Shown here piece after piece: positions 28,979 through 60,630 of a stretch of DNA of 64,000 bases (the first letter of the stretch is position 1; each line of letters opens with the position of its first letter). The translations under genes and the position numbers were made by a program. The notes below the pieces were generated by a model. The model ran no database searches. It was not told where the DNA came from and was given only the letters and a program-made list of their open reading frames with translations. Location of the stretch: NCBI GenBank assembly GCA_964460065.1, contig CAYWPF010000081.1:837-64836 (forward strand), given 5' to 3'. The stretch is from an uncultured Enterobacteriaceae bacterium. Its GTDB lineage: Bacteria; Desulfobacterota; Binatia; Bin18.

Positions 28979-31900
28979 TTAGCTGGCGCCGCCGGCCATA
29001 TGGTCTCTCAGGTACCGCGCGGTATGAGACTTCCGCCATTTGCGCATCAATTGTTTCGGCGTCCCCCTTGCCACAACGCTACCCCCGCCCGCTCCCCCTT
29101 CGGGGCCAAGATCAATGATATAATCTGCCTCCTTCAGTATATCGAGGTTATGTTCGATCGTCACAACAGTATTACCAGCATCGACCAGACTATGAAGCGC
29201 ATATATCAATTTTTCAATATCGGCAAAATGGAGCCCCGTGGTAGGCTCATCCAGGACGTACAAAGTCTTTCTCCTGGACGATCTGGATAGTTCGGATGCC
29301 AATTTAATGCGTTGGGCTTCACCGCCAGAAAGTGTGTTACTCGCTTGGCCCAAGCGGATATACCCCATACCAATGTCATTTAGCAGCCTAAGTGGCCCAG
29401 CGATTCTACCAACATCGCCAAAAAAGACTGTCGCCTCCGCGATTGTAAGTTCAAGAACTTCTGCGATGTTCTTCCCATTATACGCGATATCCCTGGTTTC
29501 ATTATTGTACCGGGCCCCGCCACAGAGATCGCACGTGACATACACATCTGGAAGAAAACTCATTTCCATCTTAATCCTTCCCTGACCCGTGCAAGTCTCG
29601 CAACGGCCGCCCTTAACATTAAAAGAAAAGCGGCCAGGTTTGTAACCTCTTAAACGCGCCTCCGGCAACAACGAAAACAGTTTTCTGACTTCATCCCAAA
29701 ATCCCACGTAGGACGCCGGTATCGAACGCGGCGTTTTGCCTATAGGAGATTGGTCAACCTCAATTACCCTTTCCACAGCTGTCGCATTTTCTATAAGGCT
29801 GTGAAGTCCGACGGTACGCACATGTAACCCGAGCTGACGACGCAGCGCGTTTACCAACACTTCCTGTACCAAAGTACTTTTACCGGAACCCGAGACTCCC
29901 GAAACACAGACCCACGTTCCGAGAGGAAACTCCGCATCTATATTTTTCAAGTTGTTAGCACGCACCCCACGAACGCATAGTTTCGTTCGGTTCTTGATGC
30001 CACGGACAGGTCCAAGACGAGAGTGGGCCGCCGAAAGAAACCGCCCAGTCAATGACTCCGCATTCATCCGAATCTCCTCAGGGGTACCGACCGCCACAAT
30101 CTCGCCACCTTCAGAGCCTGCACCCGGCCCAAGGTCTATGACAACGTCTGCGTTGTCGATCGTCTGCTCGTCGTGCTCGACCACCAAGACCGAATTGCCA
30201 CGTTGCTGCAAGTTTCTGAGGGTTTCTATAAGCCTTGCGTTGTCCCGCGGGTGCAAGCCAATAGTAGGTTCGTCTAGAATGTAACAAACGCCACACAAGT
30301 TCGAGCCGAGCTGCGCGGCTAGCCTAATTCGCTGGGCCTCACCGCCGGAGAGTGTATCCGCACGCCTATCCAAGGAAAGGTACGATAAGCCGACACGCTG
30401 CAAAAATTCTAACCGTGGGATTATCTCCCTCAAGATGGGATCTCCAATAATTCTATCTCGCGTGGAAAGGTCCAGGTCAGCAACACGATTTAGACAATCT
30501 GCCGCGGCTTCGCTCATCAATTCTGGAAAAGATTGTCCGGACAATCTAACAGCCCTCGCGCGCGGATTTAACCGAGTGCCGTCACAACCAGGGCAAGCGG
30601 ATTCCCCCATGAACCGCGTTAGCGAATCTTCCTTTCCTGGTCCATCCCCAAACCCAAGCAATCCGTGGAGGACCGCCAATACTCCCCAGTGCTTTTCCTT
30701 CTCACCGTAGACAACGCGAAACCGCTGTTCTTCTGTCAGTTCGCCAAACGGCCTATCCAGAGGAACCCCCACCTTCTTAAGTTTACGCAAGAGTGCATTC
30801 TTTTCTTCTCGGAAGTCCTTCTTTCCGAGCGGCAGGAGAGCATCTTCTAGCAAGGATTTCTTCGGATCCGGGACGATAAGATCCACTTGGAATTCCCACA
30901 GCGTTCCAGTACCCATACATTCTGCGCAGGCCCCTTGGCGGCTATTGAACGAAAACAATCTAGGGTCAAGTTCCTCGAACCCCAAACCACATTTTTCGCA
31001 GAACAAATGTTCACTGAAGGTCCGCTCTTGGTCACCCACCAGGTGGACAGCGCCGTTTCCCACTGTCAGCGCGGCCTGCATCAACGCTTCCGTAGCACCC
31101 ACGTCATCCGATACCGACGTAGTGCCTACCAGGATATCAATGTCGTGTTCCTTATATCTTTGCAAACTCATGCCCGGCTCCAAAAACTTTGGCTCGCCGT
31201 CCACTCTTGCCTGTTTGTATCCGAGCCTCCGCGCCGCATCCAAAGTATCCTTGTGAAGTCCTTTCCGACCTCGGACGACAGGGGCGTAAAAGGCGGTTTG
31301 TTGGTTCCGAAACTCTCTGTTTATCCGCGTCAGTATCTGACTTCTACTTTGGGATACCAGCGGCTCTTGACAACGCGTACAATGCTGAACGCCAATTTTT
31401 GCGTATAGAAGACGCAGGTAATGGGAAATTTCCGTCACTGTTGCTACCGTGGAGTTGCGACCGCCCCGACTCATCCTCTGCTCTATCGCAACCGTAGGAG
31501 GTATCCCCGTTAACAAATCGACGTTCGGCCGAGCGAGCACCTTGAGAAACTGCCTTGCGTAAGCAGACAAGCTATCTATATAACGCCGCTGACCCTCGGC
31601 ATACACGAGATCGAAGACAAGGGTCGACTTACCTGACCCCGACAATCCTGTGACTGCAACTATCTGATTTCGTGGGATTTCAACGTTTACATTTTTGAGG
31701 TTATGTTCCTTAGCCCCTACAACAGAGATGGTTTCGCCTTTTTCTGGAACCAAAACGCGCGAGGATTCGCCATCTCCGGCGGGCTTCAAATGAGACTCGC
31801 CGGCCGTATCTAATACCTGGATTAAGTAACGCCCCGTATGCGACGCTTTAATTTTAGAGACTTCTTCGGGTGTGCCTTGTGCGACAATCGCGCCACCTCC

Positions 31901-44973: not shown

Positions 44974-46386
44974 ATGGCCCAGAGAGACTTTCCTATGGAT
45001 AGGCCACCGGGCACCGAAGAGCGACTAGCGGTTGCAACAATAGAAGAGAGGCTACGACGACTTCGCAACCGATACAATATACATACAGCGCAAAACGGAC
45101 TCTACAGTACAGGAACAGTAGCCGGACTCTCTTTTTCTGTTATTACTTTGCTTGCCTTCTCCCTACCCCGGACTTGGTTTTCTGTAATGGCATGGTCCAT
45201 ACTTATCCTTTGCGGATTTTTTTGTTTTCGACTAATTCAGCGATGTACCTCTTTCTGGACTAACCCACGCTCCGCAGCTAGACGCATTGATCGTAACGCA
45301 GGGCTGAAGGGGCGTCTTGCGACTCTCGCGGGACTGATAAACCCGGAAAGCCAAAACATACTCCCGCAATCAGTTCTCGTACGCCACCTGTTAAACGACA
45401 ATCTCGAATTTTTCCCTTCTTGGGAAATAAAAAAAATCGCACCGAGCTACGTGCCGCTAAGCCTCCTGCCGTTTTGCGCAGCCATCGTCCTCGCCGCCTT
45501 TGTAGCATCTATCCCGCTACTGTCCCCCGCGTCCGAAACTCTTCCTTTTTCTCTGACCAATCTGGAATTGGTCGCATCTGAACTCCCGCAGCGGGCGGGG
45601 CGTCTCTTCGATGAGCGTATTGCTCCCACGGCCCAGGGAGATCAACCACCCGAAATGGTCCCTAATGAGGATCAGGTTGGTGCTGGTGCTGTAGAATCCA
45701 ACCAGACGGTCGACGTAGGCAAGGAACTGGCAGAGTTAGCGGCATTACCTGAAGAACTGCAGGAGGCCTTAAAAAAGGCTTTGGCCGGCCTTCCGGATTC
45801 GGAAGAAAGACTACAATCTGACATGAGTATCACGGAAGAAAGTAAGCGAGCGTGGGATGACGCCGGCAACTTCGAACAACTTTCTAGCAACAACGGGAAT
45901 AACGCAACAGAGTCTGGGCCGTTAGAAAGTCGGAACACGCGGCAGAACGCCGACTCCGGGGATGATACTGGGAGCGGCACTCCGCCAAAAGTTGGAGGAG
46001 GATTGCAGAAACTGAGACAGGCACGGCTCGAAAGGCGTAAAAACATTGGCGTATTGCAGTCGGGCGAGCCACAGCGAAGAAGCCAAGGGGGACGATCGGG
46101 AAAAGCTGGTCTAGGTGCCGGAAAAGGAACAGACAAACGCCTGTACGGCTCCATCACCATTCCGCCGGGGGGGCCACAAAGGTTTAGCCTGTCCCTGGAT
46201 GGGAGCTTCGAGAAAAGCAGTGCCGGCCAAGAAACGATTAAAGATGAAGGCGGCGGGGTGTTTATTAAGTCAGCCAGCGAACTAAATGAGAACCAAACCT
46301 CCGACGACGCCATGCGCAATGCCCAGGTTCCGGCCGAGTACGAAGACATCGTAAAACGACTATTTTCCGAGGAGGGAATGCCTTGA
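44974..46386 (+). CDS. Membrane protein with coiled/low-complexity Gly-rich tail (MoxR operon partner)
   Basis: Three TM segments, AARRID...GL..RL.T, Gly-rich C-terminal region ending VPAEYEDIVKRLF. Confidence 0.7.
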   Translation: MAQRDFPMDRPPGTEERLAVATIEERLRRLRNRYNIHTAQNGLYSTGTVAGLSFSVITLLAFSLPRTWFSVMAWSILILCGFFCFRLIQRCTSFWTNPRSAARRIDRNAGLKGRLATLAGLINPESQNILPQSVLVRHLLNDNLEFFPSWEIKKIAPSYVPLSLLPFCAAIVLAAFVASIPLLSPASETLPFSLTNLELVASELPQRAGRLFDERIAPTAQGDQPPEMVPNEDQVGAGAVESNQTVDVGKELAELAALPEELQEALKKALAGLPDSEERLQSDMSITEESKRAWDDAGNFEQLSSNNGNNATESGPLESRNTRQNADSGDDTGSGTPPKVGGGLQKLRQARLERRKNIGVLQSGEPQRRSQGGRSGKAGLGAGKGTDKRLYGSITIPPGGPQRFSLSLDGSFEKSSAGQETIKDEGGGVFIKSASELNENQTSDDAMRNAQVPAEYEDIVKRLFSEEGMP

Positions 46387-47432
46387 TAGAAACACCTGCC
46401 ACTGAGGCCGTCCTTGAATTTCAAGACACCTTTCGGCGTATTCGCGCCGAATTAGGAAAGGTTATAATAGGCCATGATCAGCTGATAGAAAACATCCTGA
46501 TTGCTTTCTTTGCAGGAGGTCATGTACTAATAGAAGGCGTACCCGGAACGGGGAAAACGCTCTTAGTGCGTTCGCTGGCTCAAGTATTAAATCTGAGCTT
46601 CAATCGAATACAATTCACAGTCGACCTTATGCCCGCGGACGTGACCGGAACGCAGATGGTTATGGACCAAGAAGATGGCCGTCGGGACTTCTCCTTCATT
46701 CGCGGTCCGATCTTTTCGCACGTTTTGCTCGCCGATGAAATCAATCGCTCCACGCCCAAGACACAGGCCGCACTGCTGGAAGCAATGGCGGAGTTACAAG
46801 CCACCGTCGCCGGGACCACCTACAGACTCGAGCCTCCATTTTTCGTACTTGCCACCCTAAACCCCATAGAAATGGAAGGCACCTACCCGCTCCCAGAAGC
46901 CCAACTCGACCGTTTCTTTTTCAAAGTTCGCTTAACCTACCCTACTCACGAGGAAATTCGACGCATCATCAGCTCTACAACGACGACAGCAGAGCCTGAC
47001 CTCCAGCCCGTTTTTTTAGCATCTGAAGCGGCCAGTAAGGTGATTACCTTTCGTAAGCTGGTTCGCGAGGTGCTCGTGGCCCCGCACATGGAAGAGTACA
47101 TTGCTGCACTAATACACGCCACATTGCCCGAGGACGCTCCCTACCTGAACAAAGACGATAATGCACCAATTACTCTACAGAAAGACGCTCTGGTCAACGA
47201 TTACGTCAACTTTGGGTCACGCCCCCGGGGCGGCCAGACACTGCTGCTCGGAGCGAAAGTGGTCGCACTGCTCGATGGTCGCGCTAATGTCAGCTACGAA
47301 GACGTGGACAGAGTGGCCCTCCCAACACTTAGCCATAGACTGGTTCTTAATTTCGCCGCCGAAGCAGAAAATGTCGATCCAGGAACGATTGTGCAGAGTA
47401 TTCTCGGGTCTGCCAAGAGAATACAAACATAG
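46383..47432 (+). CDS. moxR: MoxR-family AAA+ ATPase
   Basis: GVPGTGKT, RIQFT.DLMPAD..G, LADEINR..PKTQ.ALLEAM.E, NPIE.EGTY.LPEAQLDRF. Confidence 0.95.
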   Translation: MIETPATEAVLEFQDTFRRIRAELGKVIIGHDQLIENILIAFFAGGHVLIEGVPGTGKTLLVRSLAQVLNLSFNRIQFTVDLMPADVTGTQMVMDQEDGRRDFSFIRGPIFSHVLLADEINRSTPKTQAALLEAMAELQATVAGTTYRLEPPFFVLATLNPIEMEGTYPLPEAQLDRFFFKVRLTYPTHEEIRRIISSTTTTAEPDLQPVFLASEAASKVITFRKLVREVLVAPHMEEYIAALIHATLPEDAPYLNKDDNAPITLQKDALVNDYVNFGSRPRGGQTLLLGAKVVALLDGRANVSYEDVDRVALPTLSHRLVLNFAAEAENVDPGTIVQSILGSAKRIQT

Positions 47433-47444
47433 GGTGGCGCCACC

Positions 47445-48353
47445 ATGACCTTGACCGATCCTAAATTCTTTAGGCAGCTAGACCGTTTACGAATCCGTAT
47501 GGGCGCGGCGCGAGGACACCGTCCGGGGGAAACCCCCATTCCTCGCACGAATCAGGCATGGGGCGTAGAATTCGAGTCCCATAAAGAATACGCCCCCGGG
47601 GACGATTTTCGTTACCTGGACTGGAATGCAGCCGGGCGCCTCAACCAGCTGTTAGTAAAAACTTTCGTTGCGGAGCGCGAGATTCCCTGCCACATCATGA
47701 TTGACACTAGTGCGTCCATGGCCGCCCCGGCGCAAGATAAAAAATTCGCTTTCTCTTTGGACATCGCCGCGGCCCTGAGCTATATAGTTTTGTCGAGCAA
47801 CAATACTCTCCGAATTGCGGAACTATCCTCCCACAGTAAAAAGCACGGTCCAGTCCACGCAACACCCTTTTTGAGACACCGTGCTCGTTTTCAACAGGCT
47901 CAGTCTTTTTTTACTCCCCTTGTAGCCTCTGGTGAGACCTACCTTCAGGAGTCGATCGAGTCTTACATCGGGCGCACCAAAGAACCTGGGGTCGTCATCT
48001 TAATTTCCGATTTTATGGTTCCGCCGGAGCATTATCGGGCAGCAATTCTTTTTCTGGTTGCGCGCAGATACGACGTGAAAACGCTCCATATAATGGGCGA
48101 TAAAGAATTACATCCGGAGCATTTGTTTCGTCGGGGGATACTCAGGGATGTCGAAACACAAAGAGAACGGCGTATCACACTTAATGCCGCGAATTTAGAA
48201 AAATACAAAAAGGTCGTCGCTACGCACCTCCGCGAGATCCGGGAATTCTGTCATCAGCACCGAGTCTTCTACACCTGTCTCACCAGCACGACCTCAGTTT
48301 CTGATGCGATCACCAATACACTCACGCGAGAAGGCTTGCTGACCATTCACTGA
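47445..48353 (+). CDS. DUF58 (VWA-like) protein
   Basis: G.EF..H.EY.PGDD.R..DWN, DTSASM, ISDF; follows MoxR. Confidence 0.9.
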   Translation: MTLTDPKFFRQLDRLRIRMGAARGHRPGETPIPRTNQAWGVEFESHKEYAPGDDFRYLDWNAAGRLNQLLVKTFVAEREIPCHIMIDTSASMAAPAQDKKFAFSLDIAAALSYIVLSSNNTLRIAELSSHSKKHGPVHATPFLRHRARFQQAQSFFTPLVASGETYLQESIESYIGRTKEPGVVILISDFMVPPEHYRAAILFLVARRYDVKTLHIMGDKELHPEHLFRRGILRDVETQRERRITLNAANLEKYKKVVATHLREIREFCHQHRVFYTCLTSTTSVSDAITNTLTREGLLTIH

Positions 48354-48364
48354 GGAAAGTTGTC

Positions 48365-50257
48365 ATGGGAATTCTTAATCCGGCAGCCCTTCCTTTCTTG
48401 TCTCTGTTAGGTGTCCTCGTTCTAATCTACCTAAGGCAGCGTAAAAGGACTGCCATTGAGGTACCTAGCCTTCTACTGTGGGAAGCGATCGAGGAGGAAC
48501 GAATAGAAGCGCGGCGCTTTCGGCCGGACTTTCTCTTTTGGCTCCAAATGCTGTTGCTTCTATTGTTATTAACAGGCCTGCTCCACCCCTACTGGTCGAA
48601 CACTATAACACGCGTACACGGAAACCGACACATCTTTGTTGTTGATCTCTCCGCCAGTATGCAAGCGCGCGAACCTAACGCACGCCGAATTGAAATCGCG
48701 CGTGACCGAGCCCAGTCGGTTCTCGAATCGTTAGACCCGCTGGATGAGGTCATGCTAATTGGGGTCAAGGAACGGCCGCGAGTGATCAGTGGCTATACAA
48801 CCGACCACAGACTATTTTCACAATTTCTGGACGACTTAGAACCTGCCGATACCACGACCCATCTTGAACTGGGAATCGAGCTGGCCCTTGCGAGGCGAGA
48901 TCGTTCTGGATACGACGCTACAGTTCACGTGTTCACCGACATGCTGTCGGAGAAGTTGCAACTTTCAGCAATCCAACGAGACGCATTGGCCTATTACCAG
49001 GTCGGGGAAACCGATGACAATGTCGGCTTAGCATCCGTACATGTCCACCAAACCCCTTTCCAGGATTATCGGCAGGCGCAAACGTATGTGTTAGTGCGTA
49101 ACTACGCCAGCCGTCAGAAGACCGCAACCTTGCAGGTAGACCATGATAATGTTCCGGTTTTCAGCGAGACGTTCGACATGAAGCCCTACGCGTCTCGGTC
49201 ATTCTCGTTAACCGGTTTCACTGGGCCTGGGCAATTGGATGTTAATTTAGCTAGTAACGACGCTCTATCCGCGGACAATCGTGCATTTGCATGGGTCTCC
49301 GAACGGCAGCCGTGGAGGCTGGTCATCGTTTCTCCGACTTCGCTGCTAGTAGAAGAACTCCGCTCTGTTACGAATACCTTACCAGGTGTTGAACTCGTCC
49401 AGCAGACACCAGACGAATTTTTGGGACAAACCCATCAAAAGCGAGACATCGTGGTCTTTCACCAACACGTGCCTGAAGAGGAAATCGAAAGCAACAGTGT
49501 ATTCATCTATCCGCCGGTAAAAAATTCGCTGTTTCCCGTGTTACATGAAGCGTCAGACCTAAATATCTTGGATTGGAACCAAGAGCATCAAATCCTCCAC
49601 AATTTGCAATACATCGAAGCAATTCCGTTCAGACGTGCCCGAATCCTCGACTTGCCATCCTGGGCACACATACTCATCTCATCGCGCACGGAGGATCGAG
49701 AGGTACCCCTAGTGCTAACGGGAGAACGAGATGGCCGCCGCGTTGTGTGCCTGGCTTTTGATATAGAGGAAGGAACTCTAACAGATTCCGACAACCTTAC
49801 ACTTTTGGTCCTTTTTCTTAACACTCTCCGTTGGCTTCGAACACCGAGTACGATGGAACCTCACGTTTTGTCGGTAGGAGATTCGTTTTTTCTACCCCCC
49901 GAAGTAGGCGAGAGTGTTACCACGGTCGCAGGGCCGTACGCAGAAGCTGCACCCATAGAGGCAGGGATGGTGACGCTAGAACGGTCCGGTATTTATGAGA
50001 TAGCGGGGGCAATGTATAGCGCCGTAGTCTATGCGAACCTTTTTGACGAGGGAGAGTCAGATATCGGAAGATCTGCATCGAATTTAATTCAAACAGAACA
50101 CAATATCCGGCTTAATACAGACATACCCAGCGGCACTAAGGTTGACCAAGAAACCCAGAGAGAGTTCGGTCAATTCCTTTACTGGATTGGTGTATTCCTA
50201 TTATTCGCAGAATGGTTCTATAGCCTACGGAATTCATACGCTGACCAAACACCATGA
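48365..50257 (+). CDS. BatA-like N-terminal TM plus VWA domain protein
   Basis: NP.AL..L, VPSLLLW, DLSASM MIDAS, FTD, DNVG.., D.L.ADN, ESDI, C-terminal TM ending EW. Confidence 0.85.
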   Translation: MGILNPAALPFLSLLGVLVLIYLRQRKRTAIEVPSLLLWEAIEEERIEARRFRPDFLFWLQMLLLLLLLTGLLHPYWSNTITRVHGNRHIFVVDLSASMQAREPNARRIEIARDRAQSVLESLDPLDEVMLIGVKERPRVISGYTTDHRLFSQFLDDLEPADTTTHLELGIELALARRDRSGYDATVHVFTDMLSEKLQLSAIQRDALAYYQVGETDDNVGLASVHVHQTPFQDYRQAQTYVLVRNYASRQKTATLQVDHDNVPVFSETFDMKPYASRSFSLTGFTGPGQLDVNLASNDALSADNRAFAWVSERQPWRLVIVSPTSLLVEELRSVTNTLPGVELVQQTPDEFLGQTHQKRDIVVFHQHVPEEEIESNSVFIYPPVKNSLFPVLHEASDLNILDWNQEHQILHNLQYIEAIPFRRARILDLPSWAHILISSRTEDREVPLVLTGERDGRRVVCLAFDIEEGTLTDSDNLTLLVLFLNTLRWLRTPSTMEPHVLSVGDSFFLPPEVGESVTTVAGPYAEAAPIEAGMVTLERSGIYEIAGAMYSAVVYANLFDEGESDIGRSASNLIQTEHNIRLNTDIPSGTKVDQETQREFGQFLYWIGVFLLFAEWFYSLRNSYADQTP

Positions 50258-52896
50258 CAATAGAGATCTTCCAAAACATATATGCGATTCTCGTGCCTGA
50301 GGCTTTGTGGGGTCTACTTTTCCTCCCGTTCTTGTGGTTCTGGATCGTTAACCGAGCGGCGAGCACAGCACTCGTATGCGCCACAATATTTCGAACGGCC
50401 GCAGTCGTCTGTATCGTTTTAGCTTTAGCAGGCCTTAGCCACAAATCCTTCGTCTCCCAGGAGAAGCTCGCTATAGTGGGCAGTGTTGACACTTCCGACA
50501 GTGTTTCTCCAGAAGGTCGTTCCTGGAGCCTAAACTACCTTCGAGAGCTTCGGGAAACGCTGTCAAGCGACGACGAGTTCTCGGTACTTTCCTTCGCCGG
50601 CGACACACAACTCCTTCTCCCGCCCGGTCCCGCCAAAGCGGCGGCAACGCTTTCCACCGCCCCCTCGCCCGGCGGTGGTACGGACACGAATCTAGCGCAA
50701 GCCTTGGAAAGATCTTTGTCACTTTATCCAGAGGGAGTAACTAAACGGCTCGTACTGATAACCGACGGAAACGAGACGATAGGAAAAGCAAAAGGTGTGG
50801 TGCGGGTCGCGCGTCAAATGGGAGTGGAAATTTATCCAATAATACCTCCATCACAACCGCTTACGGAGGTATCGCTCGAAAAGTTTATGGTACCGCCGCT
50901 CACGCGGGCAGGAGGTGTTTTTGACATTCGACTAGTGGTACGGAATAGCCACAGCCAACCTGTACAAGCCCGCGCAAACATTTTTGCCGATGATCGTCTG
51001 CTCACACGTCAAGTAATTAACCTTATCCCTGGACTGTCAGTTTTGGAGATACCGTCCCAAATTTTAGACCGGGGGAATTACCTCCTCCGTGCGGAAATCG
51101 AGGCTACCCAGGATACTATACCTGGAAATAACACTCAAACCGCAAATCTCGCTGTCTCCGGCAAACCGCGTGCGTTAGTTATCACAAACAATCCTAGGAC
51201 TCATCTCGCACGTGCTCTAGTACTGAAAGAAGTTGATATCGAGTTTCGCAGTCCCGAAGCGTTACCGCGTAACCTTACCGACTTGCTGGATTACAATAGC
51301 ATTCTTTTCGACGATGTGGCGCGCAGAGACATCGATCAACAACAGATGAACGCGATCGAGAAATACGTCCGCGATTTCGGGGGCGGTTTCCTAATGGCCG
51401 GCGGTACTAAAACTTTCGGGAATTTGGCCTACCGCGACTCCCCGATTGAACGTATTTTGCCGGTTTCCTTTAATGAACAGCGTCCGAAAAAGAAAAAACG
51501 TATACCTATCGCTCTGTTCTTATTGATCGACCGCTCCAACAGTATGGGATACAATAGCCAAATTCGCGGACTGCACGATGGCCAAAAAATGGTCTACGCC
51601 CAAAAGGCGGCTACCGCGGTATTGGAGCAACTGCGAAACACGGACCGAGCAGGCGCCATCGCGTTTGATTCTGAGGCCTACGCACTTGCCCCTTTGAACC
51701 GGCTTTCAAAGAATCGGGCACGGCTCAACAATCGAATCAGTCGTCTCCGGTATGGAGGAGGCACGGACTTTTATCAAGCACTGGAGGCAGCCGCTGACCA
51801 GCTGAGTAGAAGCCGTCGATCTATTCGTCATATCATTCTGTTGACCGATGGTGACACGAACCGCAGTCCTACTGACCATTATCCCCTCATCAAGACAATC
51901 GCACAAAGACAGATTTCTATTACCACTATTAGGATTGGTTCCGACACGGTCAATCTGCAGCTACTATCCTACATGTCTGAAAAAACTGGGGGGCGCTTTT
52001 ATCATGTAGAAGACGTAACAAAGCTACCGCAACTTTTGGTAAAAGACACGCGACGCACCTTGAGAACGAAAGGTAAAGAGGATGAGGGACCAAAGGACAT
52101 CATCCCGCTAATTGATCAACGTGGACAGATTTTGCGTGGACTGTCACAGTTTCCTGCGCTCGAAGATTACATGCTTACTCGGCCAAAACAACGGGCGACG
52201 GTTCAATTATATACGGACGTCCACAAGGAACGTGACCCTCTACTTGCCACATGGCAATATGGGCTGGGCAAAGTAGTTGCGGTGCCTTTCGACCCTAGTG
52301 GATCAGGTTCGGGCGATTGGATACGCTGGAACGGCTTCAGCAAATTTTGGTCGCAGGCAGTCCGATGGGCAATGCGTGTAGAGAGCCCCTTCGACTATCG
52401 TGCTGCGATAATTGATTCTGGGGATAAAGTTACACTCCGGGTAGAGTCTTTCGAAAGCTACGATGGGAGTACTCTGTTCGCACGCGTGGGCCAAACCAAT
52501 AAGAACGCCCCTCTGGTGCTGATGCCGACGGCCCCGCGGATTTACACCGCAACCCTGCCCAGGCGTTATGAAGGTAGCGTCCCTGTCACATTGATCAAGA
52601 GGCAAGGCACAAAAATCGTTAACCAACGAAAACTTACGGTACCTGTGGACACTGATGGCGGGAACGTATTCAAGGAATATCGGCAAAGACAACCGAATAA
52701 AGCGCTGCTCCACACCTTGGCGGACGCTACGGGAGGGAAACTGGGTGCTACGGTTTCCGAAATCACCTCGCGAGTAAAAAGCGGGACGCATGCGTCTTTT
52801 GAATCCCTGGGGAACCATCTCATCTTGTTCTCCGTCATATTCATCTTAATCGATATAGCTTTGCGTTTTATCTCTACACGACCAACCACAACTTAG
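50254..52896 (+). CDS. Membrane protein with two VWA domains and a glutamine-amidotransferase-like domain
   Basis: DTSDSV and LITDGNET; GGG.LMAGG...FG...Y....IE..LPV; DRSNSM and LLTDG; PLLA.WQYGLGK, W..W...KFW.Q. Confidence 0.85.
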   Translation: MTIEIFQNIYAILVPEALWGLLFLPFLWFWIVNRAASTALVCATIFRTAAVVCIVLALAGLSHKSFVSQEKLAIVGSVDTSDSVSPEGRSWSLNYLRELRETLSSDDEFSVLSFAGDTQLLLPPGPAKAAATLSTAPSPGGGTDTNLAQALERSLSLYPEGVTKRLVLITDGNETIGKAKGVVRVARQMGVEIYPIIPPSQPLTEVSLEKFMVPPLTRAGGVFDIRLVVRNSHSQPVQARANIFADDRLLTRQVINLIPGLSVLEIPSQILDRGNYLLRAEIEATQDTIPGNNTQTANLAVSGKPRALVITNNPRTHLARALVLKEVDIEFRSPEALPRNLTDLLDYNSILFDDVARRDIDQQQMNAIEKYVRDFGGGFLMAGGTKTFGNLAYRDSPIERILPVSFNEQRPKKKKRIPIALFLLIDRSNSMGYNSQIRGLHDGQKMVYAQKAATAVLEQLRNTDRAGAIAFDSEAYALAPLNRLSKNRARLNNRISRLRYGGGTDFYQALEAAADQLSRSRRSIRHIILLTDGDTNRSPTDHYPLIKTIAQRQISITTIRIGSDTVNLQLLSYMSEKTGGRFYHVEDVTKLPQLLVKDTRRTLRTKGKEDEGPKDIIPLIDQRGQILRGLSQFPALEDYMLTRPKQRATVQLYTDVHKERDPLLATWQYGLGKVVAVPFDPSGSGSGDWIRWNGFSKFWSQAVRWAMRVESPFDYRAAIIDSGDKVTLRVESFESYDGSTLFARVGQTNKNAPLVLMPTAPRIYTATLPRRYEGSVPVTLIKRQGTKIVNQRKLTVPVDTDGGNVFKEYRQRQPNKALLHTLADATGGKLGATVSEITSRVKSGTHASFESLGNHLILFSVIFILIDIALRFISTRPTTT

Positions 52897-54362: not shown

Positions 54363-55046
54363 CTATTTTGATTTCTTAAGCCCAAGTCGCTCATAATACT
54401 TCTCCGGTATTTTTTCCGGATCCTTGTACATGATGAAGGAGCAATGCTCCTTACCTAGGACCGCCGCCGGCTCAACCACCACAAACGGTTTGCCGTTTTT
54501 TTCTATATCGACCAACTCCATTGGTGGTTCGTGAGCACAATACACCGGAAAATCAGCGCGGTTATAAGTCATCCGTTGCGGTTTCTTCACCGTATAGAAA
54601 CCATCAGGTCCATCGTACTTCCCCTCGAGTACCATGCGGCCTCCACTCCCGCAAGGTCGCATTTGCACAACCACTTTCTCATCATCTTCTTCTATTTGCA
54701 TAGGCTGCAGATGCCCTCGCAAACCGGCTACAAACATTTTGATCTTCTGGGGCAGGGATTTAGGATCATTGGGCATTTTTTCTAAACTTGGTAGCCACCA
54801 CGCCTTCACACCTTCAGTCATGATCTCGTCCAACACTTCATCCCCAAAACGTTTTCCTATCTCACTTAGCGTGGCGGTAGTCCAATTGCGATACAGGTCG
54901 TGCATTGCAAGGAACTCATTGTACATACTTTTTGCGATCTTTTTCGCCTGCTCAGCGTCTCCTGCTTCGATTGCTTCGGTCAAACGGTCAACCGTGCGTT
55001 TTCCCATATCGCGCATTTCTTCATCAGAAAAAAATCGATCTCCCAT
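54363..55046 (-). CDS. Conserved hypothetical protein with a Cys/His putative metal site
   Basis: HD, PCGSGGR, PVYCAH, HC motifs; ATG 55046 with GGGAGG RBS. Confidence 0.7.
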   Translation of the reverse strand: MGDRFFSDEEMRDMGKRTVDRLTEAIEAGDAEQAKKIAKSMYNEFLAMHDLYRNWTTATLSEIGKRFGDEVLDEIMTEGVKAWWLPSLEKMPNDPKSLPQKIKMFVAGLRGHLQPMQIEEDDEKVVVQMRPCGSGGRMVLEGKYDGPDGFYTVKKPQRMTYNRADFPVYCAHEPPMELVDIEKNGKPFVVVEPAAVLGKEHCSFIMYKDPEKIPEKYYERLGLKKSK

Positions 55047-55216
55047 ATTGCAGCCTCCCAATTTGGTATAACCTCCCCGCGGTATATCCTACCGGACTCA
55101 CATATTGCAATTGCAAAGAGGACAAACGCTCTGTAGTAGTTACTCAGGCGCCCTTCAGTAGAAGTCAGCTGAGGAACCAAACCAAACTTGCGATCGCGAT
55201 CGGAGTTTCCCGGACA

Positions 55217-57235
55217 ATGCAGTTTGCCCGTACCGCCAACGTGAAGCTTTCTCCCATCAAAGCCATGGAGCTGGCAGCAAGCCGTGTTCCGGACATCATT
55301 TCTTTGGCTCAAGGGATTCCGAATATAGATACCCCCGGTCCGATAAAGTCTTTTGTTCAACAAAAAATAGCAGAAGGAGCATGCGCTAAGTATTCGTTAA
55401 CACCCGGTCTGCCGCAGCTACGCGAGAGCATTGCCGACGCCTTGCTGCGAGAGGGAATGCACTACGATCCCGATCAGGAAATTATAGTCTCGGCCGGATC
55501 CGTCGAGGCAATAGCCTCGACATTGCTTGCGGTCACCCAACCAGGAGATGAAGTTATCCTACCTTCGCCCAGCTATGCCTCTTACCAAGAGATGGTCCGT
55601 GTTGCCGGTTGCACCCCTAGATTCGCCCCGCTCGAAGAAGAATCGAATTTTTCATTCAACGAACAGGCGTTCGAAGAATGTATAACACAACGGACCCGCG
55701 CCATATTGTACTGCAACCCCAACAACCCTACAGGCACGGTATTTTCCGAAAAAGAGAGCCGGGCGATAGTGAGACTGGCCGAACGTCACGGTTTATATCT
55801 GATTATCGACGAGGCTTATAAAGACTTTATTTACGGTGCCGAAGCATATTTCAGCCCCGCTCAGTTACCAGCTGTTCGGGACCGTGTAGTGCGCATCTTT
55901 ACGTTTTCAAAGGCCTTTGGAATGACAGGGTGGCGTGTAGGGTACCTTCATTCAGACAGGCAAATAGTTAAGGAAATCCTAAAAGTGCACGATGCCTTGG
56001 TCACGTGCGCTCCCGTAATCTCCCAGTACGCCGCACTCGCGGCATTAGAAATAGGAGAAGAGCACATATCATCCTTCCTAAAATCGTTAAAACAACGTCG
56101 TGACCTCACATTGAATTATCTCGACCAACTTTCAGACATTTTTGATTATCAGAAGCCAGAAGGTGCCTATTTCGTTTTTCCCCGTATAAAGGACATCGTC
56201 CCCTACTCAAGAGATTCCCAGGCTCTTGCCCACGATCTCCTGAAAAAGGCAAAGGTCGCCGTAGTTCCAGGTAGCGCATTCGGGCCCACTGGCGAATCAC
56301 ATATTAGGCTCAATTTTGGTCGTGAGAGCAGCGATATCACGGCAGCGTTTGAAAGGCTCACCTCGTATTTCCGGCCCACACCTTCTCTATCTAGAAAGGT
56401 CGCTCCAGGCAGAGAGAATCCAGAGGGCTTGGAGAAACTGAATGGTCAGAGCTACTCCGCCCCCTCCTTAGTTGTGGATCTTCTTAGCCGGGGCGCCGCG
56501 CGGAGATTAATGCTCTTCTTTCTGAAAAAATTGGCACGTATCGCCATATGGCGCAAATCCCCTCGAATTATCGCGATCGCTGGTAGTCACGGTAAAACAG
56601 TTGTCAAACGCACCATAGTTGAACTCTTGTCCACCTATCACAAGGTACAATCAAATCCGCGGTCCTATAACACAGACATCGGCCTTCCATTGGCGATACT
56701 GAATGTTCAGCTGAATTCGTTGCGCTTTACATCAATTGCCCAAAGTATCTCAAAGGCCGTCTGGAACATTCTGTTCGAAAGGGCCCCGCTAGACTATCTC
56801 GTCTTAGAACTCGGTGTCCGAAATAGTGGGGATATGCAACAGCTTCTCGGGACAGTATTACCCGATATCGCGATACTCACGACTCTCACCCCAAGCTATA
56901 GTGACGACGTAGAGGTTCTCCGTACACTCCAGGATGAAATGAAGATACTGGTGGGCGCCGCGGGGGCAACGTGCCAGTTCGTCGTTGATGGCGACGATCC
57001 TCTACTCGAGGAAGTCACACGCTCTCTCCCTAAACAAGCCATTGTTATTCGGAGCACAGCCTGGACGGAGAGCAGTTGCAACCTGCAGCTCGCTGGGCGT
57101 ACCGGCCAATACGAGGTTGCGCGGGAGATTATCGGCAAGAACGAGCGCTTTTCAGTACAAGCCGCACTGGCCGTTGCAGAATATGAGGCTCATTTGTCCC
57201 GCCGTAGGATTGCGCTTTTCTTAGGCACCACGTAG
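55217..57235 (+). CDS. Class I/II PLP aminotransferase fused to a MurF-like ATP-binding domain
   Basis: N-terminal: SLAQG.P, G...LRE.IA, NPNNPTG, DEAY, FSKAFGMTGWRVG; C-terminal: IIAIAGSHGKT, SYNTDIGLPL, LVLELGV...GDM, PDIAILT; ATG 55217 with GGAG RBS. Confidence 0.85.
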   Translation: MQFARTANVKLSPIKAMELAASRVPDIISLAQGIPNIDTPGPIKSFVQQKIAEGACAKYSLTPGLPQLRESIADALLREGMHYDPDQEIIVSAGSVEAIASTLLAVTQPGDEVILPSPSYASYQEMVRVAGCTPRFAPLEEESNFSFNEQAFEECITQRTRAILYCNPNNPTGTVFSEKESRAIVRLAERHGLYLIIDEAYKDFIYGAEAYFSPAQLPAVRDRVVRIFTFSKAFGMTGWRVGYLHSDRQIVKEILKVHDALVTCAPVISQYAALAALEIGEEHISSFLKSLKQRRDLTLNYLDQLSDIFDYQKPEGAYFVFPRIKDIVPYSRDSQALAHDLLKKAKVAVVPGSAFGPTGESHIRLNFGRESSDITAAFERLTSYFRPTPSLSRKVAPGRENPEGLEKLNGQSYSAPSLVVDLLSRGAARRLMLFFLKKLARIAIWRKSPRIIAIAGSHGKTVVKRTIVELLSTYHKVQSNPRSYNTDIGLPLAILNVQLNSLRFTSIAQSISKAVWNILFERAPLDYLVLELGVRNSGDMQQLLGTVLPDIAILTTLTPSYSDDVEVLRTLQDEMKILVGAAGATCQFVVDGDDPLLEEVTRSLPKQAIVIRSTAWTESSCNLQLAGRTGQYEVAREIIGKNERFSVQAALAVAEYEAHLSRRRIALFLGTT

Positions 57236-57377: not shown

Positions 57378-58706
57378 ATGGACAGTCCCACCGTCGGCTT
57401 GCTCATCACGTTCTTAATTGTTCTTACCAACGCATTTTTCGTCGCGGCCGAGTTTGCAATCGTCAAGGTTCGTGCATCCCAAATAGAACTGCTGGTCCAA
57501 GCGGGTAGCCGTGCAGCAAAAATGGGCCAGCACCTTATCAGTCATTTAGATTCCTATCTTGCGGCAACGCAGTTAGGTATTACGCTAACCTCGCTAGGAC
57601 TCGGTTGGATTGGTGAGCCGGTGGTCGCCCGACTGATAATGGACTTCATGGAATTAACGGCTATACAGGCCGATCCAGAACTGGCGCACAGCCTCGCACT
57701 ACCAATCGCGTTTGTTACCATAACCTTCCTCCATATTGTGTTTGGCGAGTTAGCCCCAAAGAGCCTAGCCATCCAACATTCACAACAAACAACGCTCGCG
57801 ATCGCCTTTCCTCTTTGGCTTTTCTATATTGTTTTTTCGCCCGCAATTATCGCGCTGAACTGGGTTTCGAACAAACTCTTGCATTCTGTCGGAATTGCGT
57901 CCGCGGACGGGTCCGCACATTATCATTCGGGCGAAGAACTGCGATTCCTCCTAGAACAAGTGAAAGAAGGGGGGACTATAGAAGAGGAAGAACACGAGCT
58001 AATAGAGAATGTCTTTGAATTCGGTGATACTAGTGTCCGTGAGATCATGGTGCCAAGGACGAACGTGGCAGCGGTAGATGTGACCACCCAGCACAGTGAC
58101 TTGATTAAGCTACTCGTAGAGGGGGGTTATAGCCGCATACCAGTTTACGAAAAATCGCTCGATAACGTCTTGGGTATCGTCCATGCAAAGGACCTAATTA
58201 CTTTGATGGAACACCGCGACCTAATCATTGTTCGCGACCTCATTCGTCCGGCGTTCTTCGTGCCGGAAACGAAGCCTATCGACGACTTACTGAGGGAATT
58301 TCAGCACCGCAAGGTGCATATCGCGATCGTCGTAGACGAGTTTGGCAGCACTGCGGGGATCGTTACAATGGAAGACGTTTTGGAGGAGCTTGTAGGCGAA
58401 ATCCAGGACGAACATGATACCGACACCGATGATATTCAACAGGTTAATGACCAAATTTATATCGTAAATGCGGACCGCTCGGTCTCCGATGTCAATGATC
58501 ACCTCGGCGATCCGACTTTGCCTGAGGCGGACGATTACACGAGTGTGGGCGGATTTATAAACAAATGGCTTGGCCGTATTCCGGAGGTCGGCGAAACCTT
58601 CGATTATAATTCACTTCGGATGACCGTACTCGAGAACAATAATCATCACGTTTCTAGCGTCCGGATTGAGCGACTGCCGATCGAGCATACGGACGAATCG
58701 GGGTAA
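57378..58706 (+). CDS. Hemolysin/CNNM (HlyC/CorC-type) CBS-domain membrane protein
   Basis: NAFFVAAEFA, QLGIT..SLGLGW.GEP, GEL.PK, MVPRT, SRIPVY, VDEFG...GIVT.ED..EE.VGEI.DE. Confidence 0.92.
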   Translation: MDSPTVGLLITFLIVLTNAFFVAAEFAIVKVRASQIELLVQAGSRAAKMGQHLISHLDSYLAATQLGITLTSLGLGWIGEPVVARLIMDFMELTAIQADPELAHSLALPIAFVTITFLHIVFGELAPKSLAIQHSQQTTLAIAFPLWLFYIVFSPAIIALNWVSNKLLHSVGIASADGSAHYHSGEELRFLLEQVKEGGTIEEEEHELIENVFEFGDTSVREIMVPRTNVAAVDVTTQHSDLIKLLVEGGYSRIPVYEKSLDNVLGIVHAKDLITLMEHRDLIIVRDLIRPAFFVPETKPIDDLLREFQHRKVHIAIVVDEFGSTAGIVTMEDVLEELVGEIQDEHDTDTDDIQQVNDQIYIVNADRSVSDVNDHLGDPTLPEADDYTSVGGFINKWLGRIPEVGETFDYNSLRMTVLENNNHHVSSVRIERLPIEHTDESG

Positions 58707-58729
58707 CGGAATTCAAAACGACAATACCT

Positions 58730-58981
58730 ATGGAGACCTCGGCAATCCTTTATACCCGCTCTGACTGCGGTTTATGTGATGAAATGAAGACTATTCTGGG
58801 ACGTGTAGGCACACGAATCCCTTTTCATCTAGAAGAAATAGACATATCATCCGATGTAAAACTTGAAAGAAGATATGGACTTGAGATACCCGTGCTCTAC
58901 ATAAACGGCGCAAAAGCCTTCCAATACCGAACCACCGAAGAGGAACTCAGGAAATTCTTCGAGAAATTAGTCCATCGTTGA
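58730..58981 (+). CDS. Glutaredoxin-like protein (DUF836 type)
   Basis: LYTR.DCGLCD, DI..D..L..RY...IPVL. Confidence 0.85.
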   Translation: METSAILYTRSDCGLCDEMKTILGRVGTRIPFHLEEIDISSDVKLERRYGLEIPVLYINGAKAFQYRTTEEELRKFFEKLVHR

Positions 58982-58999
58982 GCCGCGGCAGACTGCGGT
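58982..58999. terminator. Short hairpin between convergent genes
   Basis: gccgcgg-caga-ctgcggt. Confidence 0.3.
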
Positions 59000-59012
59000 T
59001 ATGTCATCCCAG

Positions 59013-59810
59013 CTATGGGTCTGCGCTGCCACGCTCGACGACTACCGTTCCTTGAAAACCCTTGCGTGAAAGATCCATCACCTGCTCACGTGCCGCCATT
59101 CGTTCTGAGAATGGGCCCGCTCGCACCTGATAGTAGACGGAACCGGTCGTGGACAAAACCCTGATATATACTCGGTGAGCGATCCTCGCCAAGCATCGTT
59201 CAAGCAACTGAGCGCTCTCCAACTTTCTATAGCTGCCGACCTGCACCGCATACACACGGTCAGAAACATTTGCAGCATGTTCGACCGCCTCCAATTGAAC
59301 GGGCGCCAAACCTCTCTGTTTCATGTCGATTATTTTTGCCGCTTCCATTGATAGGTCCAACATACGGCCATCCCGAAAAGGTCCTCTGTCCCTAATTACC
59401 ACCTCTACCGTCTTTCCATTGTCTAGATTAGTCACCCACGCCACTGTTTCAAATGGAAGGGTCCTATGCGCAGCCGTTAGGGCGTGCTGATCATACATTT
59501 CCCCGCTCGCGGTACGTTTCCCATGAAAACCCGGCCCATACCATGACGCCACGCCTGTCTCGATTATATTTTGGCTGTCGCGAACGGTCAGCCCCATTGA
59601 CCGCTGCATGCACTCTTCTTGCTTCGGGAAAGGATGATTAACGCCCCTTTCTGAGTTCGCTCTGGAGCCTTCAAGTCTTATTTTCTGAACTACGGGTTTT
59701 CCGGTCCCCACACTTTCAAAGATAGGATTCTGCGGATTCCTGACACGGCTTCGCGCGCTGCAACTAGACAAGAGAAGTCCTATAGACAGTATAACCAATA
59801 AGAATTTCAT
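59013..59810 (-). CDS. rlpA: Septal ring lytic transglycosylase RlpA (DPBB plus SPOR), lipoprotein
   Basis: LSSC lipobox; G.ASWYG..FHG..TASGE.YD...LTAAHRTLP, DRGPF, DLS; SPOR domain VQVGS...VRAGPF; start uncertain (59849 or 59810). Confidence 0.9.
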   Translation of the reverse strand: MKFLLVILSIGLLLSSCSARSRVRNPQNPIFESVGTGKPVVQKIRLEGSRANSERGVNHPFPKQEECMQRSMGLTVRDSQNIIETGVASWYGPGFHGKRTASGEMYDQHALTAAHRTLPFETVAWVTNLDNGKTVEVVIRDRGPFRDGRMLDLSMEAAKIIDMKQRGLAPVQLEAVEHAANVSDRVYAVQVGSYRKLESAQLLERCLARIAHRVYIRVLSTTGSVYYQVRAGPFSERMAAREQVMDLSRKGFQGTVVVERGSADP

Positions 59811-59925
59811 TACGTACTGCGCCCCCATTTCGTTCGTCGCGAGAAGCATCCTTTTCTATCAACGACTGTAAGCGGGGACCTCGATTGCTTGTCCTACGCC
59901 CGGTTCCCATGTAGGATCAGACTCG

Positions 59926-60630
59926 ATGGCGGGTTTCAATACGCCCTTTCGCCGGCTTGGAAAAGCGATCAAAGCGACTCTCCCTGCGAGACAGATGAGA
60001 AGGTCCCTACTATCCCAGCCTTCTTTCTCTAAAAAAGAGAGCGTCTCCGAAACGGATAACGACTTATTCACCCGAGAAATGCACGGAGTGACCCGTCTAA
60101 AGCAGGAACAGAGAGTAAGTAAAGGCCCACCGATACTCACACGAAGGTCGCTAGAAGAAGCTAATAATGAGGCCATAGCGGAACTCTCTGACCTCGTAGC
60201 TGGCCGGGCCGTGTTCGATGTCACTTTGACAGATGAGTATATAGAGGGCTGCGTCGTGGGACTCGACCCACGACTGCTGCGCAAATTACGGATGGGCGAA
60301 TTCGCCCGGCAAGGGGCCTTGGATTTGCATGGGATGAAAGCAGATGAAGCAAAAGAAGAAGTCGAACATTTCCTCAACCACGCTGCCCGAAACGGAGTCC
60401 GATGCGTACTAATAGTACACGGTAGAGGGCTAAATTCGCCCGGACAATTTCCCATCCTGAAAGACCGCCTCAAACAATGGCTTACTCGTGGGAGATTATC
60501 TAAAATTATATTGGCTTTTTGCTCCGCAAGAACACATGATGGTGGCCCGGGGGCCATATACGCACTTTTGCGGAGGAATCGCGCACAAAAAAAAGAGATC
60601 ATGGTACTCGAGGGTACCCCCAATGAATGA
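59926..60630 (+). CDS. Smr/MutS2 C-terminal domain protein
   Basis: LF..EM.GV..L, LDLHG, LIVHGRG..S, LK, GG.GA.Y.LL. Confidence 0.9.
   Translation: MAGFNTPFRRLGKAIKATLPARQMRRSLLSQPSFSKKESVSETDNDLFTREMHGVTRLKQEQRVSKGPPILTRRSLEEANNEAIAELSDLVAGRAVFDVTLTDEYIEGCVVGLDPRLLRKLRMGEFARQGALDLHGMKADEAKEEVEHFLNHAARNGVRCVLIVHGRGLNSPGQFPILKDRLKQWLTRGRLSKIILAFCSARTHDGGPGAIYALLRRNRAQKKEIMVLEGTPNE

Follow-up and report, generated by a model that had tools for sequence, protein, structure and literature searches.

In Mur ligases, ATP sits between the central and C-terminal domains, the latter forming half of the ATP site, and in MurF, whose substrate is a tripeptide, the central domain binds most of the UDP-N-acetylmuramoyl-peptide (UDP-MurNAc-peptide) (PMC3829189). 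For D-alanine supply, chlamydial GlyA, a serine hydroxymethyltransferase and a fold-type I pyridoxal 5′-phosphate (PLP) enzyme, has been proposed as the source in a bacterium that lacks alanine racemase, Alr (PMC3935232). Here we describe a gene in a stretch of 64,000 nucleotides from contig CAYWPF010000081.1 (assembly GCA_964460065.1; the whole stretch analysed is referred to as the window), whose 672-residue product joins a class I/II PLP aminotransferase to the central domain of a MurF-type ligase. The fusion is very probably genuine, with orthologues encoded by two separate genes and a Mur part that descends from MurF through a lineage without the C-terminal domain and is no longer a canonical ligase. 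A preliminary description of this DNA, made from the sequence, knew of no described fusion between an aminotransferase and a Mur protein, and the literature that we searched, mostly excluding subscription journals, likewise yielded no account of such a fusion, of the corresponding two-gene pair, or of proteins that consist of the Mur middle domain only (hereafter M-only proteins).

The gene is a single frame on the + strand that starts with ATG and is open in translation table 11. Its main parts are as follows.

55217..57235 including the stop codon, + strand: whole gene, 672-residue fusion of an aminotransferase and a Mur middle domain, conserved in a single frame in 93 of the 301 class genomes.
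55292..56359, + strand: residues 26–381, class I/II PLP aminotransferase domain (fold-type I, resembling aspartate and aromatic aminotransferases), assigned by PF00155.
55910..55912, + strand: AAG codon of Lys232, the PLP Schiff-base lysine of FSKAFG, which aligns with the FSKTFA lysine of 1DJU.
56378..56488, + strand: residues 388–424, linker of variable sequence and length, predicted to be disordered.
56489..57232, + strand: residues 425–672 (the first boundary is approximate), MurF-type central P-loop domain without the N- and C-terminal Mur domains, assigned by PF08245 and by fold.

The single 672-residue frame claimed in the preliminary description was borne out by the open reading frame, by the Pfam assignments and by conservation, and the positions it had given for the PLP lysine, the P-loop and a GGAG-N4-ATG element all agree with the sequence, in which its N..IG.PL and LE.G motifs are also present. 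It had proposed a domain scan, which placed both Aminotran_1_2 and Mur_ligase_M above their cut-offs, and had been wary of a stop or frameshift in the linker. To check the junction we used four metagenome runs on marine or seawater samples (X1–X4), one of which may be the source of the window itself. Contigs from X1 and X2 span positions 56293–56704 with no differences from the window, an X3 contig spans 56358–56533, and X4 contigs span 56362–56487 and 56449–56760; none of the contigs from the four runs carries an indel over the linker or junction. Since the frame stops at 57233–57235 and the next gene, encoding a CNNM/CBS/CorC transporter-like protein, begins at 57378, 142 nt past the stop, no Mur C-terminal domain is concealed downstream.

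Searching with the C-terminal half of the protein returned 149 proteins at E ≤ 1e-3. Among the 120 of these that were listed, 114 are 655–740 residues long and 106 contain both Pfam families, which rules out a chance fusion. Where the source annotation names these relatives it calls them only 'aminotransferase class I/II-fold PLP-dependent enzyme', and thus overlooks their Mur-derived second half. The full fusion was located at 25 genome loci, 21 of them labelled Candidatus Binatia. Within the class to which the window belongs, for which our tallies include four unpublished genomes (G378, G403, G408 and G282) that do not affect the conclusions, the fusion occurs in 93 of 301 sampled genomes (E ≤ 1e-15), nearly always in frames of 650–1100 residues, so that the architecture, which the preliminary description had suggested seeking elsewhere, defines a conserved family. 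It is concentrated in eight of the 20 families of the class, namely f1 (44 of 48 genomes), f86 (8/8), f3 (3/3), f98 (5/5), f93 (16/24), f91 (10/17), f4 (5/25) and f85 (1/1). It was not found in the twelve other families (for example f5, 0/49; f87, 0/25; f94, 0/21) or in any of 195 sampled genomes of the same phylum outside the class. When the class was searched with the aminotransferase half, orthologues (54–80% identity) were recovered only within long fused frames, the next-best aminotransferases being at most 36% identical and encoded by frames of about 390–455 residues; no unfused orthologue was present in the class genomes searched. In one genome of the same genus (G281:C1:824766–826771) the fusion is divided into two frames of 561 and 191 residues within the Mur domain, owing to a frameshift or a sequencing error.

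The same two proteins are encoded separately elsewhere. Metagenome contigs scanned with an alignment of M-only proteins gave 80 loci, of which the 54 with enough flanking DNA were analysed. An open reading frame could be assigned in 52 of these, comprising 51 complete M-only genes (202–274 residues) and one short MurF of 432 residues. In 51 of 51 cases the M-only gene is preceded, in the same orientation, by a class I/II aminotransferase gene of about 400 codons, which is its immediate neighbour in 49 loci and is separated from it by one gene in two. Of 50 pairs, 34 have genes that overlap or lie within 50 nt of each other, and ten show a 4-nt overlap. The split aminotransferases align over their full length with the aminotransferase half of the window protein at 44–55% identity (median 52%). 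Since these enzymes are orthologous and the M-only genes adjoin them, the window protein represents a conserved module of two genes in fused form. The preliminary description had held that a fusion would be doubtful if all homologues were two separate genes; they are fused within the class and are two genes in another phylum, which supports functional coupling and does not refute the fusion. The neighbourhood of the split pair is of the cell-wall and cell-division type (dcw, division and cell wall). An FtsQ/DivIB-like gene follows the M-only gene in 32 of the 51 loci, and Ddl, where it is near the pair, often lies directly upstream of the aminotransferase, one contig having the order partial Mur-like gene, Ddl, aminotransferase, M-only; SerRS (23 loci), LysRS (14) and M23 peptidase (7) genes are other frequent neighbours. 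In six of the 51 loci (L107, L114, L118, L124, L142 and L143) a DUF5654 protein of about 95 residues takes the place of FtsQ after the M-only gene, and many split loci have PMT_2-type glycosyltransferases in convergent orientation just downstream of ftsQ.

The aminotransferase half is a full-length member of PF00155 (216 bits against a gathering threshold of 19.7; E 1.1e-63; profile positions 2–361 of 361). Among solved structures, 1DJU, the aromatic aminotransferase of Pyrococcus, is closest to it (225.7 bits), and the Thermus aspartate aminotransferase matches it at about 200 bits. Over 78 fused and split orthologues, 76 positions are at least 97% identical, amongst them K232, D198, Y201, N169, N170, R240, R364 and Y59, to which we assign the active-site roles that we take to be established for aspartate aminotransferase; the motifs SLAQG and HDxxVTCAPVxSQ are signatures of the subfamily in the same 78 sequences. 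None of the NCBIfam equivalog cut-offs is reached by this half, for which the best match is the GntC model NF041364 (316.6 against 415), while 'aminotransferase A' scores 284 against 575, the LL-diaminopimelate aminotransferase (DapL) model TIGR03540 203 against 593, and the capreomycidine-synthase-type model TIGR03947 178.6 against 390.9. GntC-like chemistry was considered and set aside, the match being below cut-off and GntC being only the fifth-best match for the split orthologue. As judged from its sequence, this half is a complete subgroup Iβ-like aminotransferase and looks functional.

The C-terminal half is a member of PF08245, Mur_ligase_M, over residues 454–614 (profile positions 1–145 of 200; 35.9 bits against a cut-off of 24). 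Its best NCBIfam match is the MurF model TIGR01143, at 81.6 bits, far short of the cut-off of 288.6; the MurF-Alr model NF008897 matches at 58.6 bits, and the best solved sequence is the Thermotoga MurF 3zl8 (E 4.9e-8). Modelled alone, the half gives a confident fold, with a predicted local distance difference test (pLDDT) score of 88.7 and a predicted template modelling (pTM) score of 0.86. Its top structural matches are the MurF structures 4qf5, 8f5d and 3zl8, at template modelling (TM) scores of 0.60–0.67 (Foldseek match to 4qf5_B: E 2.7e-9, TM 0.67), and the top 50 consist of MurF followed by MurT, FolC and MurC/D/E. Neither Mur_ligase_C (PF02875) nor the N-terminal domain of MurF has a match in the fusion, whose C-terminus coincides with the final helix of the central domain. 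The earlier view of this part as a MurF-like domain with an intact P-loop and both flanking domains missing is thereby upheld. The sites that matter in what follows are these.

56582..56599, + strand: Walker A motif or P-loop GSHGKT, G456–T461, with G456, G459 and T461 invariant in 28 fusions.
56663..56701, + strand: SYNTDIGLPLAIL loop, S483–L495, more strongly conserved than any other motif of the domain, in fused and split forms alike.
56807..56815, + strand: E531-L-G533, the Mg-binding glutamate motif LE.G (E531 is GAA at 56807–56809), invariant in the 28 fusions.
56897..56899, + strand: Tyr561, in the column of the catalytic His of MurF, where the short MurFs and the MurF of the same genome have His.
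56939..56941, + strand: Met575, in the column of the 'EK'-motif Lys of the short MurFs, from the alignment with MurF proteins.

Thirteen residues of the Mur half are invariant over the 28 aligned fusions (G456, G459, T461, K464, R465, S483, N485, T486, G489, L495, E531, G533 and P549). All of them lie in active-site motifs, which indicates that a ligand site has been kept and that the domain is not a mere scaffold. The loop that contains S483, N485, T486, G489 and L495 reads NTDIGLPL in the window protein and [SNG][YF]NTEIGLP in nearly all of 92 M-only proteins, and the LE.G glutamate, within LELG in the window protein, is also invariant in the alignment with MurF proteins. The P-loop lysine K460 is present in 27 of the 28 fusions; its only loss is a change of Lys to Asn in GGQGNT (genome G076, locus L049). 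The residues of ligation have fared differently. The column of the catalytic His, whose role is known from MurD, holds Tyr, Phe or variable residues in the fusions and Tyr in 66, Phe in nine and His in seven of the 92 M-only proteins. The 'EK' column, which from its motif would correspond to the carbamylated Lys, is never Lys in the 28 fusions (Met, Ile or Val instead) or in the 92 M-only proteins. Near the end of the domain, the His of a 'G.H' motif, which we presume to contact adenine, is conserved in the MurF sequences and not kept in the fusions. Because the His, Lys and 'G.H' columns and the C-terminal domain are lost and the P-loop is kept, the Mur-derived half is probably not an amide ligase and may be a ligand-binding P-loop module without ligase capacity. 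Measured against the window protein over the 28 fusions, the aminotransferase half is 52–78% and the Mur half 30–59% identical.

To place the origin of the Mur half we used an exhaustive search, which gave 5665 matches at E ≤ 1e-3. Short matches of 245–336 residues (P0122–P0134, P0142 and P0156) were considered as stand-alone forms and rejected as fragments of fusions, since they carry a tail of the aminotransferase or have no starting Met. Beyond the fusions, the nearest sequences form two groups: MurFs of 400–450 residues that lack the N-terminal domain and possess Mur_ligase_C, and M-only proteins of about 250 residues that end at the same point as the fusion. The fusion has in common with both short groups a helix at the N-terminus and an insert of about 29 columns, the latter missing from the MurF of the window's own genome. 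The nearest clusters in the ESM Atlas are called 'Mur ligase middle domain-containing protein' (245–279 residues); on the basis of few members, their most frequent taxa are Minisyncoccota and Moraniibacteriota. For the phylogeny, 137 rows went into a quick maximum-likelihood tree, with Shimodaira–Hasegawa-like approximate likelihood ratio (SH-aLRT) values as its only support measure and no bootstrap; it comprised 63 short MurFs (first 270 residues), 49 proteins of 225–300 residues, 21 fusions in addition to the window protein and three Mur ligases of the window's own genome, and left out those of P0136–P0271 that were of other length classes or had an aminotransferase tail. All fusion C-terminal halves, together with the fragment P0142, form one clade (SH-aLRT 100), nested within a clade that contains 42 M-only proteins (SH-aLRT 99) and is separate from the short MurFs that bear a C-terminal domain. 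Seven short rows, possibly truncated gene calls, fall at scattered positions within the MurFs. The likeness to the short MurFs of Patescibacteria that the preliminary description had proposed therefore holds in the common helix and insert and in the nesting of the tree.

Given the MurF ancestry and the ddl neighbourhood, we surveyed Alr in the class. TIGR00492 exceeds its cut-off in 224 of the 301 genomes, and a comparison of the genome tables by hand places Alr in 29 of the 93 genomes that carry the fusion, as against about 195 of the 208 others. The pattern is asymmetric, as Alr is missing almost solely where the fusion is present: 64 of the 77 genomes without Alr have it. By family, Alr is found in 3 of 45 fusion-bearing genomes of f1, in none of three in f3 and in two of eight in f86, and f91 comprises seven genomes with the fusion only, three with both and six with Alr only. 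We claim no statistic for this pattern because related genomes are not independent. In four of five further fusion-bearing genomes Alr is likewise below cut-off or missing. The window's own genome (97.7% complete) has no match to TIGR00492, its only match to the racemase-type domain PF01168 being YggS (C126:20115–20678), and the fusion itself is a fold-type I protein and not a member of the fold-type III Alr family. The genome has Ddl in its dcw cluster and a Mur-type set of MurC, MurD, MurE, MurF (380.4 bits), Mpl and FolC.

We propose that the window protein is the fused form of a two-gene system made up of a dedicated enzyme of the class I PLP aminotransferase fold and a MurF-derived M-only domain. 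The M-only lineage would have arisen from a MurF without an N-terminal domain by losing the C-terminal domain, the catalytic His and the carbamylated Lys, and with them ligation, and would have retained the phosphate-binding loop, the Mg-binding Glu and the NT.IG.P loop. The system would act in the D-alanine/D-Ala-D-Ala branch of peptidoglycan precursor supply, where the PLP domain may make D-alanine, by racemisation or by an unusual transamination, or otherwise replace alanine racemase, and the Mur-derived domain may modulate or localise the PLP activity by binding a nucleotide or UDP-MurNAc-peptide. We give this mechanism as a whole, in which we infer the catalysis, the binding, the ligand and the D-alanine role, a probability of about 0.4. 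A role in peptidoglycan precursor supply is on balance favoured, and the D-alanine step is the weakest link. More speculatively, the pair could constitute an unrecognised route to D-alanine that replaces Alr in a number of lineages within the class and, perhaps, across much of Patescibacteria, with the dead MurF domain sensing UDP-MurNAc-tripeptide or a nucleotide so that D-alanine follows demand; we regard this wider proposal as tentative. Of the ideas in the preliminary description, that of sensing or channelling towards peptidoglycan precursors gains real support from the position of the split pair beside ddl and ftsQ and from the association with genomes that lack Alr.

Several observations weigh against this proposal. 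Fold-type I aminotransferases are normally L-specific, no sign of racemase chemistry was seen in the sequence of the aminotransferase half, and the best family matches of this half are ordinary aspartate and aromatic aminotransferases and GntC, all below their cut-offs. The association with Alr is partial and tracks phylogeny: 13 genomes of the class have neither Alr nor the fusion, and both coexist in 29, including 5 of 5 in f98, 12 of 16 in f93 and 4 of 5 in genus g160. The window's genome also encodes three fold-type IV aminotransferases, two IlvE and one unclassified (G000:C47:6928–7812; L149:1393–2277, − strand). The unclassified enzyme reaches none of the NCBIfam cut-offs, scoring 224.9 for the branched-chain subfamily (cut-off 363) and 153.6 for D-amino-acid transaminase (cut-off 320). 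Present in 23 of the 25 genomes that represent the window's genus, it could make D-alanine and is possibly a genus-specific D-amino-acid transaminase. As a class-wide source of D-alanine it was rejected, since it is confined to genus g1 and was found in no other genus of the class at E ≤ 1e-60; it may nevertheless act in this way within that genus. Ddl lies within six genes of the split pair in only 14 of the 51 loci, and no neighbour of the fusion is conserved in the window's class beyond close relatives; over 16 distant fusion loci (L049–L064) no conserved neighbours were found, apart from clusters contaminated by antisense open reading frames in these loci of high G+C content. The P-loop of most split M-only proteins is GSTNKT, with Asn in place of the second Gly, and about 11 of 92 are canonical, so that nucleotide binding may not be common to the whole M-only family. 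Lastly, the 51 split loci are probably of Patescibacteria origin, an assignment that depends on Atlas labels and low G+C content (median 0.374) and not on contig taxonomy.

The alternative that survives best, and which we consider possible yet short of even odds, is that the enzyme is an ordinary L-specific transaminase of the aspartate, aromatic or alanine type, coupled to a sensor of nucleotide or muropeptide and balancing the amino-acid supply of the wall without making D-alanine, with the Alr pattern a coincidence of lineage. It agrees with the nature of the best matches (1DJU, the Thermus enzyme, aminotransferase A and archaeal aspartate aminotransferase), with the retention of all transaminase residues, and with the joint presence of Alr and the fusion in 29 of 93 fusion-bearing genomes. 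The flexible linker, which has a pLDDT of about 30 and no conserved columns among the aligned fusions, is also in keeping with it, as is the low confidence of the full-length model (pLDDT 70.8, pTM only 0.53), which yields no domain arrangement. However, an L-specific transaminase leaves unexplained the source of D-alanine in the 64 genomes without Alr, that of the window included. Moreover, this aminotransferase subfamily never occurs without its Mur partner, whether in the 51 split loci or among the class genomes searched, which would be unexpected for a housekeeping enzyme.

The other alternatives concern the two halves in turn. A Mur domain that is still ATP-dependent, as a kinase, as a former of acyl-phosphates or as a ligase for which the aminotransferase stands in for the lost C-terminal domain, could yield a new amide or phosphorylated intermediate. 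The canonical P-loop of the fusions (K460 in 27 of 28; G456, G459 and T461 invariant) and the invariance of E531 and of the substrate loop speak for such an activity, which we nonetheless judge unlikely: no fusion retains the His or the Lys column, the split forms have lost the former in 85 of 92 cases and the latter in 92 of 92, the 'G.H' motif is not kept in the fusions, most split orthologues have the non-canonical GSTNKT loop, and half of the ATP site is gone with the C-terminal domain (PMC3829189). For the same loss of the His and Lys columns and of the C-terminal domain, the suggestion in the preliminary description of a new amide-forming enzyme is not supported. Slightly less likely still is an aminotransferase of diaminopimelate (DAP) metabolism, similar to DapL or PatA, or one that acts on the free D-centre of the DAP in UDP-MurNAc-tripeptide while the MurF-derived domain holds the substrate. 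The models for aminotransferase A and LL-DAP aminotransferase do match at 200–300 bits, and the tripeptide is the MurF substrate that is bound mostly by the central domain (PMC3829189). Nevertheless, all such model matches are far below cut-off, and this explanation offers no link to the Alr pattern. The window's genome contains a dedicated DapL (TIGR03542, 566.9 against a cut-off of 364.7, at C31) as well as a second DapC_direct-like gene, and the dedicated DapL weakens a DAP role for the fusion. A vestigial or purely structural Mur part, or an assembly artefact or pseudogene, is already largely refuted and very improbable: the Mur half does evolve faster than the aminotransferase half, and there are the split frame in G281 and the lost P-loop lysine in G076, but the frame is intact in four metagenome runs and about 90 genomes, the invariant residues cluster in active-site motifs, and a stand-alone M-only protein is kept beside the aminotransferase in all 51 split loci.

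A structure prediction for the complex of an aminotransferase dimer with the Mur domain returned scores of 0.01 and 0.00 against a mark of 0.32, which count neither for nor against an association. Within the frame, just past the linker, lies one further element.

56502..56512, + strand: GGAG at 56502–56505, ATTA, and an ATG at 56510–56512 (Met432), as read from the sequence.

The preliminary description had raised the possibility of an independent start at this ATG. The motif is indeed present, roughly where the N-termini of the split M-only proteins align, but Met432 is not conserved, the column being Val in P0002 and Ala, Ile, Thr or other residues in the remaining aligned fusions.

Upstream of the fusion, a divergent gene (54363–55061, − strand) encodes a Cys-rich protein of 232 residues that, at 83–88% identity in close relatives, surpasses the fusion in conservation. 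Comparison with NCBIfam and the PDB gave no match to this protein, its only hit being a borderline one to the B12-binding_2 cap domain (23.4 bits). Orthologues occur in family f5 (14 of 49 genomes), where there is no fusion, and paralogues of about 32% identity are widespread. We considered this gene as a partner of the fusion and rejected it, as the fusion-bearing families f3, f4, f91, f93 and f98 are without orthologues and have at most paralogue-level matches of about 32% identity; given this mismatch of phyletic profiles, the adjacency is synteny by descent. Past the fusion, positions 57378–60630 hold genes for the CNNM/CBS/CorC transporter-like protein, a glutaredoxin-like protein, an RlpA-type lytic transglycosylase with a SPOR domain (59013–59849, − strand) and an Smr-domain protein, in an order that is conserved in close relatives only. 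Elsewhere in the window there is a very long open reading frame of 1882 residues (28979–34627, − strand) and a run of co-oriented genes (44974–52896, + strand) that ends in an 880-residue protein with VWA, DUF58-like and GATase1-like parts (50254–52896). This run presumably resembles operons of the Bat/aerotolerance type, the domain scan having covered its last gene.

These findings define a new protein module, in which an aminotransferase is tied to a non-ligase domain derived from a Mur ligase. Bacterial wall synthesis cannot do without a supply of D-alanine, a step at which drugs are aimed. For genomes without Alr, the module offers a testable candidate source of D-alanine in two large groups that are uncultured, namely the class of the window (Candidatus Binatia) and, probably, the Patescibacteria. 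Should the Mur module prove regulatory, it would be a case of a biosynthetic ligase turned into a ligand-sensing partner.

Amongst described proteins, MurF, and in particular the short MurFs without an N-terminal domain, resembles the fusion in its central fold, P-loop, NT.IG.P loop, LE.G and DDP motifs. It differs in possessing the C-terminal domain and the His and Lys columns, which the fusion lacks while also falling below the TIGR01143 cut-off, and the window's genome holds a separate full MurF. The M-only proteins are closer, belonging to the same clade as the C-terminal half, with the same end point, the same loss of His and Lys, and an orthologous aminotransferase as partner. Unlike the fusion they are one of two genes, mostly carry GSTNKT and have ddl and ftsQ as neighbours, both of which are missing beside the window's gene; they are uncharacterised in the literature that we searched. 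The structural matches of the C-terminal half also include MurT of MurT/GatD (6h5e_B) and the plastid chains 8r6s_Q, 8xzv_J and 9epc_Q, which we take to be the MurE-like associated protein (PAP) of the plastid RNA polymerase. Like the fusion, MurT and the plastid MurE-like subunit reuse the Mur scaffold with partners or without ligase activity, whereas MurT, in contrast to the fusion, keeps catalysis and has the C-terminal domain.

The aminotransferase half aligns over its full length with the subgroup Iβ aspartate, aromatic and prephenate aminotransferases (1DJU, 1GD9, 1BJW and 5WMH), sharing the PLP Lys, the Asp, Asn and Tyr and both Arg residues, but forms a subfamily of its own that has the signatures SLAQG and HDxxVTCAPVxSQ and is always partnered by a Mur domain. 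Chlamydial GlyA differs in that it belongs to another PLP family, its D-alanine activity is a moonlighting one and it has no Mur-derived partner. The fusions of MurF with alanine racemase (NF008897) and of Ddl with MurF (P0143) resemble that of the window in joining a MurF-type module to an enzyme of the D-alanine branch. In these, MurF is complete and catalytic and is paired with a racemase of fold-type III or a ligase of the ATP-grasp type, whereas in the window protein a truncated Mur domain without the ligase residues is joined to a fold-type I aminotransferase.

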